Assembly: GCA_965602015.1 (NCBI GenBank)
Contig: OZ271918.1
Span: forward strand, 608,001-672,000
Reading direction: 5' to 3'
Source: Salinispira sp.
GTDB taxonomy: Bacteria; Spirochaetota; Spirochaetia; DSM-27196; Salinispiraceae
DNA: 64,000 nt
The position numbers are program-made. The stretch's first letter is position 1; every line of letters starts with the position of its first letter. Below are positions 36,001-42,000 of the stretch, piece by piece.

Positions 36001-39000
36001 AAAATAATGGGCTTGGTTGGGGGAATTGGCGTAGATTGTAGCGGATTTCTTCCGGTCTGTGAAGAACTGCCGTACGGCTGGTAACAGCCTCGAAATAAGG
36101 CGATTGCTCAATTACTTATTAAGAAAAGTAAATATAGTAAAAAATATATCTAAAGGGATCTTGCCATTTTGCCCTCATCGGTTACAATGGAAGACAAGGA
36201 AACCGCGTACCGTACCGGGCCGTATACATAGGAGCAGTTATGTCCGATCAATCCGTTCTCAATGCAATAGATATTCGCTATAGCGACCTCGCTGAAGGGA
36301 GCTGCTGCCTTTCCTGCGGGGGAGCCATCGACAAATCCCAGCCAAAAGCCGGAGAGGTCTGCGTAGACCTGGGAAGCGGCCGGGGAACAGACCTCATACG
36401 TCTTGCCGAAGCGGTCGGTGAAACCGGCCATGTGCATGGGCTGGACATTAGTGACGGGATGCTTGCCAAGGCGTCCCGAACCGTGGAGAAGCTGGGGCTG
36501 TCCCGGCGGATCAGCCTTCATAAAAGTGATCTCCAAACCATACCCCTAAAATGCTCCAGCGTCGATTTGCTCATTTCGAACTGCACAATCAATCATGCTA
36601 AAAACAAAGCCCGGGTCTGGAAGGAGATCCATCGAGTTCTCAAAGACGGCGGGCGGTTTGTCGTCAGCGATATCTATTCGATCACCGAGGTTCCGGAACA
36701 ATACTCAAACGACCCCGCAGCCGTTGCCGAATGCTGGGCCGGTTCGGTTACCAGGGATAGTTATCTCCGCCAATTGTCGGACGCCGGTTTTGCTCAGATC
36801 GACATTGTTGAAAAGAGCGCGCCGTATGCCAAGGGGGAGATTGAAGTCTGTAGTTGGACGATCCGGGGTGTGAAGCGCGGCAGCGGCAGTTGCTGCTCGA
36901 AATAAGGGTTTATCAGCTGTTTTCGGGGCATATCTGAAAGCGGTGCCCCCCCGCAAGAGTTTTCATTGTTCTATTACAAAAATTCTGCAAATCGGTTTTG
37001 TCCGAGTCATATCTCCGCCATCCACGTGGCATGAAAATGTCCTTCCAGGGGTGTCGCAATCACTTTGCACAGCCTCGTATTCGCGCTGTAGCCCCAAAAA
37101 CGCGCTTACCCCTGTCTGGACAAACCCGCTAATGCAGGATCTTTGTAATGCTGTTCTTTCTGCAATATCCAAAATATTGCTTCTGCTAAGTGCCGTGCCA
37201 CGGCGATTATTGCAACCTTATGATTACGTTTAGTACGAACTCTCTTGTAGAGTTTTACCGTATGTCGGTTCGCCCAATTTCTTTGATTAAGACAGGTTAC
37301 ATTAGCTGCTTCAGTAAGTGCCCACTTCAAGTATCGATTACATGCTTTCGATGTTCGACCATAATGAGTTTTACCTCCGCTCGAGTGAACGCGCGGCGTT
37401 GTACCACAGTATGATGCAAAATGTTCAGCGGTCTTAAAGCGATGTATGTCTCCAATTTCATGCACAATGACTGCGCTGAGAATAAATCCGATCCCGGGAA
37501 TGGATTTCACCAACTTCATTTCAGCATTTTCATCAAACGCTTCATGCATTCGTTGTTCGCAGTCGGTGATAGATTGCTTAATAAACGCGAGATTATCGAG
37601 CTTGAGTTTCATCATGGTGCGGGTATGCTCGGGGAGTTTTGGCATTACCTTCTTCATGGCTTCTGTACCTGCTTTTCCGAACAGATCGCTCACATCATTG
37701 AATCGAAACCCATATTTCTCGAACCCGGCATGAATTTGGTTCTTTTCACGTATCAACTCCTGAACGAACTGCATCCGGGTTCGATAGAGTTCTCGTTTAT
37801 CACGCAATTCTCCTGGTGGAATCCACACAGTAGGCAGTGTGCCTGCTTTTTGAAGTTTATTGAGACCTTCAGCATCGAGTTTGTCAGTTTTGTTAAACAT
37901 GGCCATCATCAATTTTGACTTACCGGCATGTACCAGCAAGGGGTTCATGCCGGCCTCCTCAATCTCATCCACAATCCAGTACCAACTTCCGATCGTTTCA
38001 AGTGCGACTTCCTGTCCCGGCTCAAATTGTTGGAGAAAATCACGAATACACCCGTGAGAATGTTCTATGCGCTGTGAGGATTTCCTTCCATTTTCGTCCT
38101 CAATTGCAGCCACGGTATACCGTTTATGGCTGTCGAGGGATATAATAGTATTACTCATTTGGTTGTCCTCCTCCGGTATTTAATATAGACCCTGACTGGC
38201 AGGATCTCGGGGGAGGCACCGCTTTCATACCATCACTCTAATAATGTACAAGGAGGGATTCTATGAAAAAGAATCTGAAGTCTCTCATACGCAAAAAGCC
38301 TCAGGGCGACAAGAAGCAGGCTCAGTGCTGTGCCAAGGTTTCTCCCGTCGTTGCGGGCTGTCACGACTGAACGCGGTTACCCGCGTGTGCCCCTCGGGGC
38401 CCGAAGGGCCGCTGAAACGGCGGTCCTCCGGTTTTTCTTTTCTGTAAGGATACTCCTATGGCGGAAATTCTTTCGAAACACAACATTCTCACCCGGCTTC
38501 ATAACAAAGACGAATGGCTCCTGGTCAATCTTCTTCATCAGCAGGCGGACATTATTGAAGCTGATCTCGCAGATCAGATTCAAAATGGTGAAGTACTCAA
38601 CGCTGGTATCTCCGGCCCGGAGTACATCGAGTTAAAAGAGAAGGGGTATATAATTGATGATGCCCTCGAAGAGTCGAAATTCCGGCTTGCCTACGGAGAT
38701 TTTATACGCGCCAGGGACGAATCGGAAGTTCAGGTTTTCTACGTGCCTGGGTATTCCTGTAATTTTGCCTGCGGCTACTGCTATCAGGAAGGTTATGAGC
38801 ATGCCGCCCATCCGCAACAGGACGGAGTCATCGATGCCTTTTTTTCATATATCGATCGCAGCCTTGCAGGACGGTCCTGGTACCTGACGATTTTTGGCGG
38901 CGAACCTTTGCTGCCGGGGCCCAATCAGCGTCGAATTGTTGAAAAACTGATTAAAGGCTGTAACAGCAAGGGTGTATCCCTGGCTGTGGTGACCAACGGA

Positions 39001-42000
39001 TACTATTTAAAATCCTATATCGATCTGCTCTCTACCGCGGACATCAGAGAAATTCAGGTGACTCTTGATGGTGTGGGCGATGTGCATAACCGGCGCCGGC
39101 CGCTCAAAGCATCGGTCCACGGTGACCGTGATCCCTCGAGTTTCGAGGCGGTTGTGGCCGGTATTGATGCAGCCCTCGATGCGGGTTTTGTTGTAAATAT
39201 GCGCACGGTTCTGGACCGGGATAATCTTCCGGCTCTTCCCGATCTGGCAGATTTTGCTATCAGGAAGGGCTGGACGGGCAGGCGGAATTTCAAAACCCAG
39301 CTCGGACGGAATTACGAGCTTCATTCATGTCAGGCGAGTCAAAAACGCCTGTACAGTCGTCTCGAAATGTATTCCGACCTTTTCGATCTCATTTGTGAGC
39401 ATCCCCGGGTCCTGGAATTCCATGTTCCGGCGTACAGCATCTCTCGCTTCCTGTTTGAAAACGGCGAACTTCCCATGCCCCTGTTCGACAGTTGCCCAGG
39501 GACAAAAATCGAATGGGCCTTCGACTCAAGCGGGAAGGTGTATGCCTGCACCGCTACGGTGGGAAAGTCTGGGCAGGAACTGGGATCTTTTTATCCGCAA
39601 CAGAATCTGGACACCGATGCTGTGGAGCTGTGGGAGGATCGGGATGTCCTCTCCATAGATGAATGCCGCAGCTGTTCGCTCAACCTCGCCTGCGGGGGGG
39701 GGTGTGCGGCGATTGCCCTCAACCGCAACGGCGGGCTAAACACACCGGACTGCCGGCCGGTTGATGCCCTCATGTCCCTGGGGGTAAGCCTGTACGCCAG
39801 CCTGGACTTACCGACGAGGACTGAACTATCAGGAGGAAGTGATGGCGGGTAAAATACATGAAATCGATTCGGAGGAATACCAGGAGGCGGTCCTCAATCA
39901 GAACCTTGCCGTTTTGGATTTCTACTCAACCGAATGCCCTCCCTGCGAAGCTCTGGCAGCAAAATTCGAGGCTCTTAGTGAGATCTATGGCGACCACATT
40001 AGATTCGTCAAAATTTTCCGTCAGGGAAATCGGGATCTTGCCCTCAAACTCGGGGTTACGGGTAGCCCGACCCTTTTATTCTACCGGGCCGGCGAGATGG
40101 TCGGCGACAAACTCACTGGTGGCATAAGACGATCGGCAATTATGAAAAACCTCGATAGTTTACTAGGCGAAAGCCGGGCAGCGGAACTAAAAACCCGGAT
40201 TAAGGCTGTTGAGACGACGGCCGATGCGGTAATTCTCGGCGGGGGACCTGCAGGACTGACCGCCGGTATATACCTAGCACAGGCTCGCCTAAAAACCATC
40301 CTTGTGGACACCGCCCTTCCGGGAGGCTATGTAGCGACGACGCACCAGGTATCAAATTACCCAGGCTTCGTTGAGCCTCAAACCGGCATGATGCTCAGCC
40401 ATTACATTAGTGAGCAGGCCAAAAAAAACGGTGTCGATTTCCGGGCTGCTGTTGAAGTAAATGAGGTCAACCTAAAGGAGCGAACCGTCCGGATTGACGG
40501 ATTTGAGACGATCAGGGGAAAAAAGCTGCTCATCGCCACCGGATCGAGCCCACGGCCCCTGGGAATCCCCGGGGAACTCGAGTTCCGGGGAGACGGAATT
40601 TCGTACTGCGCCACCTGCGACGCAAAGTACTTCGACGGCAAGGACGTGATTGTTGTGGGCGGGGGAAACTCTGCCATTGAAGAGGCTCTTTTTATCAGCA
40701 AGTTTGCTAAATCAATAACCATCGTTCATCAATTCGATGATCTTCAGGCTAACAAATTAGCCCAGGAGAAAATCTACGCAAATCCCAAGGTTGAATTCCT
40801 GCTCAGTCATGAACCAAGGGAGTTCAAGCGCTACGGCACCATGGACATGGGGGTGGTAATCGAAAACCTCAAGACGAAGTCGAGAAGGGAAATCCGAGCA
40901 CACGGGATTTTTGCTTTCATCGGATTTATGGCAAATCTCGATGGTCTCCAGGGATTAGAGCAGGACCAGTGGGGTTACATTAAAACTGACGGAGAAATGC
41001 GCACCAATATCGACGGAGTGTATGCCGCAGGTGATATTACATCCAAGATGTATCGGCAGATTACCACAGCGGTGAGCGATGGTACCATCGCTGGAATAAG
41101 CATGAGCAAGGAAATATCAGGATAGCACCCAGATAACCCCGCGCATTAATTCTATTGCACAACAATCCGGGCATACGCATAATCGGATTATATGAACGAT
41201 GCTGATGCCCGAATTTTTTCCCGGTTGTCCTCCGAACTAACCATCAATGAAAAACAGATACACGCCGTCGCCGAACTTCTCGATGAGGGATCAACGGTTC
41301 CCTTTATCGCCCGCTACCGAAAAGAAAAAAGCGGAAACCTCGATGAGACCCGCATTATAGCCATCCGGGACGGTTTAGCCAAAAACCGGGACCTGGAAAA
41401 GCGGCGGGCTTTTATCCTAGAAAGCATAGATAAACAGGGAGCCCTTACACTGGAACTTCAACGGGACGTTCAGAGCGCGGGGGACTCGAACCGTCTGGAA
41501 GACCTGTACCTTCCCTACAAGCAAAAACGGGAAACCCGAGGGTCCCGAGCCCGAAAGCAGGGCCTGGAAGATCTTGCCCGGAAACTTGCATCCGGTGCTG
41601 TCCATGACCCCCTTCTCGAGGCAGCCCATTTTGTTTCCCCTTCTGACGGTCCGGCTAGTGCTGCCGATGCCCTCACTGGCGCTCTGGATATCATTGCCGA
41701 AGATATCAGCTTAAATCCCGACCTGCGACACAGTATGCGGATTCTTTTTCGCGAGAACGGGGTATTACAATCTCTCGCCGTGAAAAAGAAACAGAAAGAG
41801 GAGGCGGCGGCAATCTACCGTGATTATTTTGAACACCGGGAAGCGATTAGTCGAATAAAGGGACATCGGCTACTGGCAATGCTCCGGGGTCAGCGGGAAG
41901 GTTTTTTGCGACTTTCCCTTGAGCCCGATCGGGAACAGGCTCTGAAGCTCATCGGCGCAATACATTTCAAGGGACTGCCCCAGCCCTTCCTCCGAACTCC

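Follow-up and report, generated by a model that had tools for sequence, protein, structure and literature searches.

A conserved peptide, a radical SAM maturase, an ArsM-like methyltransferase and a thioredoxin–thioredoxin reductase fusion form an apparently undescribed RiPP-like gene set in Salinispira sp.

What does a relative of arsenite methyltransferase do beside a very short gene, a radical SAM enzyme and a thioredoxin reductase of its own? The question is raised by one locus in the window, the 64,000-nt stretch of Salinispira sp. DNA that was analysed and to which all positions below refer. A preliminary description had read the peptide, the maturase, the ArsM-like enzyme and the thioredoxin–thioredoxin reductase (Trx-TrxR) fusion as a RiPP-like system, and this is well supported by near-complete co-occurrence of the genes, by their co-divergence and by modelled docking of the peptide leader. 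The gene set is apparently undescribed: neither it nor its motif was found among family models or in the literature other than subscription journals and the supplementary tables of RiPP-mining papers.

Layout and distribution of the cassette

All of the genes were found again at the positions first reported. On the forward strand, a predicted sigma-70-like promoter match (36161–36188, 10 of 12 matching; 10 such matches over the whole region compared with 5.6 ± 2.7 in shuffles) precedes the gene for a 221-aa SAM methyltransferase of the cassette type with a Cys tail (36240–36905), assigned as ArsM-like by sequence, fold and alignment. An IS110-family element on the reverse strand (36912–38237, transposase 37106–38158) separates it from the peptide gene; this element is absent from both same-genus genomes compared and is an insertion that stands outside the system. 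The remaining features are all on the forward strand. A ribosome-binding site (38248–38255, AAGGAGGG) lies 7 nt before the ATG of the 35-aa precursor peptide (38263–38370), and hairpins occupy the gap that follows (38371–38445), with a terminator-like stem-loop and T-run at 38405–38445. Next come the 464-aa radical SAM/SPASM maturase with an N-terminal RRE-like domain (38458–39852) and, overlapping it by 11 nt, the 427-aa fusion of a thioredoxin (CPPC) to a low-Mr thioredoxin reductase (CATC; 39842–41125).

The same partners recur almost wherever the maturase is found with sufficient flanking sequence. Among 155 related loci the peptide is present in 148, with 144 copies no more than 300 nt upstream of the maturase, and the methyltransferase in 140, and every locus without one or the other has too little flanking DNA. 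Of the 146 loci that extend far enough downstream, 143 have Trx-TrxR, four times directly upstream of the methyltransferase. Two of the earlier counts needed revision. The peptide, put at 27 of 30 GTDB loci, is in 29, and so is the methyltransferase, the single miss in each case having only 258 nt upstream; the statement that eight loci lack the reductase was wrong, as Trx-TrxR is found in 27 of the 30 (two of them cut), two of the others end right after the maturase and one (L029) has none within 10 kb. The maturase family occurs in 43 of 401 Spirochaetota genomes; the cassette-type methyltransferase is in each of these and, beyond them, in a single deletion relic. In 401 sampled Bacteroidota genomes the cassette was found in four, and at least 588 metagenome stretches encode a relative.

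Could two independent modules simply travel together, one for detoxification (arsM with Trx-TrxR) and one made up of peptide and maturase? In one genome the methyltransferase is accompanied by no more than a TrxR fragment, and another carries a second, degenerate orphan copy of the methyltransferase, but these orphans look like relics, the maturase is present in 43 of the 44 genomes with the methyltransferase clade, the genes are interleaved, and in sister-clade loci the end of the methyltransferase gene abuts the start of the peptide gene; we regard separate modules as highly improbable. Pairwise distances of methyltransferase and maturase correlate (r = 0.89 over 95 loci, the best of 200 permutations reaching 0.28, with kin that are not independent of one another).

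The peptide and its maturase

The precursor consists of a leader, (M/L)KSLIxK, a basic linker and the core AQCCAKxSxxxxGCHD, of which the consensus AQCC-x-K-x-[ST]-x4-GCHD is nearly invariant across relatives while the codons are free to vary. The residues C, C, K, G, C and H are each present in 126 of 126 distinct peptides, and each two-codon residue uses both codons. Because the full motif occurs just once in the 3.87-Mb genome and its residues are invariant despite mixed codons, it is more than a chance match. The peptide matched no NCBIfam family, as first reported, 54 peptides compared with RiPP precursor families gave no match, the only hits being two weak and unrelated ones, and a protein atlas returned one unnamed cluster (0.79), which is a lead only. 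Ovothiol-like chemistry, with thiohistidine formed at the Cys-His pair, was also weighed and set aside, with no support in the data.

Of 139 distinct loci, 111 have a stable hairpin (z ≤ −2) behind the stop codon of the peptide gene, and a search of Rfam for a structured RNA in the region gave no match at E ≤ 0.1; the terminator scan by itself was not significant (5 sites compared with 5.8 in shuffles). Since the peptide gene here ends in TGA followed by hairpins, and some ArsM families are selenoproteins, one might read the TGA as selenocysteine and the hairpin as a SECIS element. However, the stops after 136 distinct cores are TAA in 74, TGA in 50 and TAG in 12, and the use of all three argues against selenocysteine; the Salinispira sp. 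genome yielded no tRNA-Sec among 47 genes and no selA. Read-through was rejected on these grounds, and the likelihood of a selenium system is vanishingly small.

The maturase carries CxxxCxxC at positions 101/105/108, seven SPASM cysteines and an extra C291, and the CxxxCxxC and SPASM cysteines are kept in 142 of 142 family members. Its best profile match and nearest solved fold is CteB (E 2e-18; TM 0.63–0.67), the maturase of the SCIFF ranthipeptide CteA (PDB 5WGG, 5WHY), with which it shares the layout of RRE, radical SAM and seven-cysteine SPASM domains, a short Cys peptide encoded upstream and, in the model described below, a leader bound as a strand on the RRE. The two are nonetheless only 14–17% identical, their peptides differ, and the enzyme here has an additional invariant GRNYELHxC motif and the methyltransferase and Trx-TrxR as partners. 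It falls below the curated cut-offs of the five maturase families considered, scoring 58 bits for SCIFF/CteB (TIGR03974, cut-off 425) and 83 for PapB (340), and even the best family matches, the Cys-rich peptide maturases CefB, TIGR04463 and Clo7bot, reach only 132, 124 and 105 bits where 600, 525 and 600 are required, all three as in the earlier scan.

A structural model of peptide and maturase together scored 0.88, the best control reaching 0.09; the mark that it passed is also passed by 116 of 157 solved pairs and by 2 of 215 mismatched pairs, counts that are only a rough guide here. The runs share at least 42% of contacts, the partner pLDDT is at least 50, leader residues 3–12 are placed on RRE residues 28–34, and confident contacts include D35 and the conserved R284, R301 and Y305. 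The model thus points to binding of the conserved leader by the RRE, although its pass may owe something to likeness to CteA-CteB.

Kinship to CteB and to maturases of Cys-rich peptides, together with outgroup maturases that adjoin Cys-rich peptides, could suggest that the product is a ranthipeptide or signal peptide of the ordinary secreted kind, with the methyltransferase as a tailoring enzyme and Trx-TrxR only keeping the precursor reduced. Against this, the conserved neighbours of the cassette include no transporter, peptidase or immunity gene, and such invariance of a core across phyla is untypical of most antimicrobial peptides, so this explanation is improbable.

The methyltransferase and the question of arsenic

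The closest relatives of the methyltransferase in both sequence and fold are ArsM enzymes. ArsM/AS3MT (NF008823; PDB 4FR0, 5EVJ, 6CX6) rank first by fold (Z 24.1, rmsd 3.6, 200 aligned residues), in a comparison where non-ArsM methyltransferases reach Z 21.9, and the protein atlas returned clusters named arsenite methyltransferase, their commonest phyla including Bacteroidota, Bacillota and Myxococcota. Like ArsM the enzyme has a thioredoxin partner, and its C26, C115 and C165, which align with C72, C174 and C224 of CmArsM, are present in 125 of 125 cassette methyltransferases at identities down to 29%. In contrast to ArsM it is encoded beside a peptide and a maturase, scores below every ArsM cut-off in NCBIfam (165 of a required 263, being shorter than the model) and belongs to a separate clade, which has lost the canonical N-terminal insert of about 40 residues and has acquired new invariant residues around the site, with H119, W166, Y196 and K198 invariant on a remodelled rim. 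The canonical segment bearing C44 is deleted; an extra pair, C22-C23, part of a CCLSC motif, is kept in 115–116 of 125 and may substitute for it. Where this N-terminal pair is missing, 9 of 10 partner peptides have extra linker cysteines, as against 28 of 115 otherwise, a suggestive compensation that comes down to 4 independent pairs (median p 0.25); a similar compensation between the methyltransferase tail and the peptide linker was unsupported when checked.

Does the cassette, then, handle arsenic? As judged from sequence, the link made in the preliminary description is plausible: the invariant arsenic-binding cysteines, a reductase suited to a disulfide cascade of the ArsM kind and, at a few loci, ars neighbours speak for it, while the lack of ars genes at most loci and the remodelled site, which would suit a non-arsenic substrate equally well, speak against it. 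PMC6138428 describes ArsM as working with thioredoxin through these cysteines and as preferring As(GS)3; the 99.7% complete Salinispira sp. genome yielded neither gshB nor gshF. Ars genes lie beside 5 of the 64 long cassette loci and none of 22 canonical arsM loci, and may do so through shared genomic islands; at the other 59 loci the available flanking DNA shows no clear ars transport or reductase gene, and acr3 and arsC of Salinispira sp. lie about 210 kb from the cassette. A MarR gene, absent from the Salinispira sp. locus, was found in 45 of 155 loci and nearly always lies immediately upstream; it is likened by layout to MarR-ars, having a conserved Cys close to the N-terminus and another in the C-terminal helix, two rather than three. 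No hgcA, which would suggest a link to mercury methylation, was found in the genome.

The main rival dispenses with arsenic altogether. The methyltransferase would have been repurposed to methylate the stapled peptide, at Cys-S, His-N or the C-terminal carboxylate, and the product would be an intracellular thiol or redox cofactor recycled by Trx-TrxR. The separate clade, lost insert and new invariant residues are in keeping with this, as are the scarcity of ars neighbours and the frequency of sulfur and redox genes near the cassette (CoA-disulfide reductase-rhodanese, a sulfide:quinone reductase-like flavoprotein and extra thioredoxins). It is also in keeping with the presence of a canonical arsM in 10 of the 43 cassette genomes, so that plain detoxification does not need the cassette copy. 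Yet the three ArsM cysteines, not evidently needed by an N-, O- or S-methyltransferase of peptides, are universally kept, and Trx-TrxR remains beside the methyltransferase even where the gene order is shuffled; we consider this a real possibility, if a doubtful one.

A further alternative takes its precedent from ArsL and ArsS, which, according to PMC13598754, create C-As bonds when a radical adds to As(III), with ArsL binding arsenic through RCCLKC. The Cys-Cys-x9-Cys triad of the peptide would bind As(III) or methyl-As like a detached ArsL C-terminal tail, and the maturase would join arsenic to a carbon radical, of the peptide or of SAM, before methylation, giving an arsenic-bearing peptide or a small organoarsenical. 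As in the ArsL-ArsM (arsinothricin) and ArsS-ArsM (arsenosugar) pairs, a radical SAM enzyme is joined here with an ArsM-like one and a Cys-Cys-plus-Cys triad is available; the CCLSC of the methyltransferase resembles RCCLKC, all three peptide cysteines are invariant, and in one record (P0142) a maturase is fused to a full ArsM domain. But ArsL and ArsS act on free arsenic with SAM-derived radicals, whereas the maturase here includes an RRE and a SPASM domain and has its peptide as a separate partner, and the ArsL and ArsS families are not among the best 25 of its 62 NCBIfam matches; the methyltransferase is far under NF040538 and NF038099. P0142 is a single sequence that was placed in a neighbouring clade and so ruled out as a fusion within the family, and no exporter or resistance gene is conserved. 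Radical C-As chemistry is accordingly distinctly unlikely. In its broader form, with the RRE-tethered peptide as an arsenic carrier or arsenic-bearing product and a radical C-As bond plus methylation leading to a new organoarsenical in common anaerobes of sediments and digesters, we judge the idea unlikely.

A proposed pathway and its meaning

The reading that we tentatively prefer, at somewhat less than an even chance, is that As(III) or a similar metalloid is delivered to the methyltransferase by a modified thiol peptide inside the cell and that Trx-TrxR resets the disulfides. It is built on gene content, conservation and folds, from which all of the chemistry is inferred. The peptide would very probably be made in excess, given the hairpin after its gene, and would dock through its KSLIxK leader on the maturase RRE. 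By kinship to CteB, the maturase may then take hydrogen from the invariant core, most likely to form a Cys-to-carbon thioether with K25, S27 or D35 as candidate acceptors; thioether formation would consume thiols needed for As(III) binding, and some thiols would have to stay free. These could bind As(III) or Sb(III) and offer the metalloid to the methyltransferase, the peptide replacing both glutathione and the Cys-bearing N-terminal segment that this clade has lost; triads of the Cys-Cys-plus-Cys type bind As(III) in ArsL and MarR-ars. If the published ArsM mechanism serves as a guide, methylation would run through a disulfide cascade on C26/C115/C165, with reduction by Trx-TrxR. Of the GxGxxA and HRRxxxR motifs of NADPH thioredoxin reductases (PMC10880999) the reductase, for which NADH or another donor may supply the electrons, keeps the first as GGGNSA but has HQFD in place of the second, HRR being present in 1 of 116 relatives and HQ in 108, and its TRX_reduct score of 300 (cut-off 343) was reproduced.

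An invariant core, a methyltransferase with arsenic-binding cysteines and a private reductase together suggest chemistry outside the known list of radical SAM peptides, and the cassette may connect peptide chemistry with arsenic handling in many anaerobic bacteria. With four small genes, a direct test is easy. If arsenic is not involved, the system would exemplify an arsenic enzyme turned peptide-tailoring enzyme; if it is, many genes of anaerobes now counted as arsM would have a role other than simple detoxification, and should the peptide prove to be an arsenic carrier or to yield an organoarsenical, the cassette would open a new route within the arsenic cycle and make up a RiPP-type system centred on a metalloid.

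A four-gene cassette and its distribution

In the window, four intact reading frames on the forward strand encode a methyltransferase of 221 aa (36240-36905), a peptide of 35 aa (38263-38370), a radical SAM enzyme of 464 aa, here called the maturase (38458-39852), and a thioredoxin/thioredoxin-reductase fusion (Trx-TrxR) of 427 aa (39842-41125). The most closely related loci point to a spirochaete host. An IS110 element (36912-38237), with 8 further near-identical full copies and 1 partial copy elsewhere in the genome, separates the methyltransferase and peptide genes; it is missing from the locus in both same-genus genomes, where this gap is below 100 nt. 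The insertion may have polar effects on the genes that follow it (peptide, maturase and reductase) or may drive them. A 377-aa frame at 44159-45292, with a Cys/His motif near its N-terminus, resembles another transposase.

The comparison set comprised 155 loci (165 collected, minus 7 duplicates, plus the window, minus 4 with enzyme identity below 30%), including close kin and, in L070 and L071, the halves of a single locus. The peptide is present in 148, upstream DNA being too short in the remaining 7; the methyltransferase lies upstream in 140, the rest being short of DNA; and Trx-TrxR lies on the downstream side in 139, and in 4 it immediately precedes the methyltransferase. Of the other 12, 9 have too little DNA, 2 give no information, and L029 is without Trx-TrxR within 10 kb. 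In a sister clade maturase identity is only 34-36%, yet gene order and peptide core are unchanged. By co-occurrence, then, the four genes are a single unit.

Among 401 Spirochaetota genomes the maturase family occurs in 43, each with a score of at least 394 bits; the matches in 3 other genomes, all below 140 bits, are different enzymes. The cassette-type methyltransferase occurs in 44, namely the same 43 and G079, where it is directly followed by the C-terminal 80 residues of a TrxR (L183, G079:C132, 5860-6782), a locus that is a deletion relic. Canonical arsM is additionally present in 10 of the 43. In Bacteroidota, 4 of 401 genomes, the centre genome included, carry the maturase family. Neither methyltransferase nor reductase was found near five outgroup maturases; unnamed Cys-containing precursor candidates lie beside such enzymes at L176 (7026-7208), L178 (5715-5918) and L177 (8714-9222, as two near-identical copies).

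Optional neighbours among the 155 loci are MarR (45) and DUF1847 (33), and no conserved transporter or peptidase was found. DUF5714, a Cys-rich domain that also occurs in MbdU, adjoins 4 of 6 sister-clade loci checked (L066, L067, L069, L072) and is fused to the maturase in the protein records P0128 and P0130.

The peptide and its maturase

Across 126 distinct peptides the C-terminal core is almost invariant (A 125, Q 125, C 126, C 126, A 121, K 126, then S/T 126, G 126, C 126, H 126, D 125), while its codons freely use synonymous alternatives and the stop codons vary (TAA 74, TGA 50, TAG 12; n=136). A short M-K-S-L-I-x-K motif stands at the N-terminus; the linker differs in length between peptides and in 33 of the 126 carries at least two additional cysteines. 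By this conservation across loci, the peptide gene is real. A stable hairpin 3′ of the stop codon in 111 of 139 distinct loci suggests that the peptide message would be more abundant than the enzyme message.

All 142 maturases keep CxxxCxxC and seven SPASM cysteines, and the nearest solved relative by both profile and fold comparison is CteB, the SCIFF ranthipeptide maturase, which has an open iron site. C291 is kept in 136; the 6 without it are the sister clade, and C291 is therefore not required for work on the peptide core, as would fit an open iron site like that of CteB. A model of the peptide-maturase complex scored 0.88 against 0.09 for the best control, with at least 42% contact agreement between runs and peptide pLDDT of at least 50. 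Among 157 solved pairs 116 pass the same mark, as do 2 among 215 mismatched ones, although these figures are only roughly valid for the present model. Leader residues 3-12 pair with residues 28-34 of the N-terminal RRE domain, where D31 is kept in 142 of 142 maturases, and D35 is the sole core residue with a confident contact. Because the complex of CteB with its peptide CteA is already solved, the pass may show likeness to that complex only. Overall, we consider it highly probable that the peptide is a substrate or working partner of the maturase. Two distant maturases (L080 and L081 in the spirochaete G267) are preceded by tandem leader peptides, which we take to be nif11-like.

Methyltransferase, reductase and the arsenic question

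In sequence as well as in fold the methyltransferase matches arsenite methyltransferases best, and its C26, C115 and C165 (kept in 125 of 125) align with C72, C174 and C224 of CmArsM. As described in PMC6138428, C174 and C224 of ArsM bind As, C44 and C72 serve reduction, thioredoxin does the resetting and As(GS)3 is the preferred substrate. Compared with 22 canonical spirochaete ArsMs, the cassette enzymes form a clade apart, lack a Cys-bearing insert of about 40 residues, and have gained H119 (125/125), W166 (122/125), Y196 (125/125) and K198 (123/125); H119 and W166 flank both As-binding-type cysteines along the sequence. The site thus looks like an arsenic-type one opened to take a larger partner. 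Trx-TrxR retains CPPC, CATC and GGGNSA, and HQ replaces HRR in 108 of 116; by the motif rule in PMC10880999, the reductase would not be a standard NADPH enzyme.

Arsenic could enter in two ways, with the peptide as an As(III) carrier feeding the methyltransferase or with the maturase forming a C-As bond by radical chemistry. Clear ars genes lie beside L075, L118, L125 and L138, and L077 has an ArsR-like gene and a distant permease in its flanks, giving 5 of 64 loci of at least 9 kb (two 24% permease matches left out, queries mostly from L075) against a rough chance expectation of 0.3-0.9 that assumes 3.5 Mb and 1-3 ars loci. This is a small excess, for which shared islands may be responsible. 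Ars-type neighbours were found at 0 of 22 canonical arsM loci, so their absence does not speak against a role for arsenic in these bacteria. The cassette MarR has two conserved cysteines positioned like those in MarR-ars, which has three according to 10.1101/2021.08.12.456183. PMC13598754 describes As(III) binding by ArsL via RCCLKC and C-As bonds made by ArsS and ArsL. P0142, a single record of 792 aa, fuses a neighbouring-clade radical SAM/SPASM enzyme to a full, long ArsM domain, possibly a second, independent maturase-ArsM system. Neither gshB nor gshF was found in the window's genome. On the ars neighbours, the MarR cysteines, the ArsL/ArsS precedent, the P0142 fusion and the gshB/gshF result, we lean slightly towards a metalloid role, taking both readings jointly.

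Several enzymes of P0142's and related clades end in Cys-Cys tails. At L075/L187 (G095:C75, 700-13800) a rearranged cassette adjoins an ars cluster (ArsP, ArsR, canonical arsM, Acr3, ArsC); its peptide lies 2.3 kb off on the opposite strand, and a Trx fragment follows the maturase, with the full Trx-TrxR farther away. Canonical ArsM matches in five genomes from one spirochaete genus (G055, G081, G103, G120, G237) contain a single in-frame TGA and are probably selenocysteine ArsMs.

Placement among radical SAM peptide systems

NCBIfam (June 2026) holds no model for the peptide or the maturase: the window's maturase reached the cut-off of no maturase family among the best 25 of 62 matches, nor did 33 relatives reach a cut-off among the best 5 matches listed for each. 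Searches of the open literature yielded no description of the gene set. New arsenic chemistry in the cassette appears unlikely. The cassette resembles a CteB-type maturase system coupled to an ArsM-type module while being a member of neither named family, and it is a real and widespread radical SAM peptide system that has apparently not been described before.
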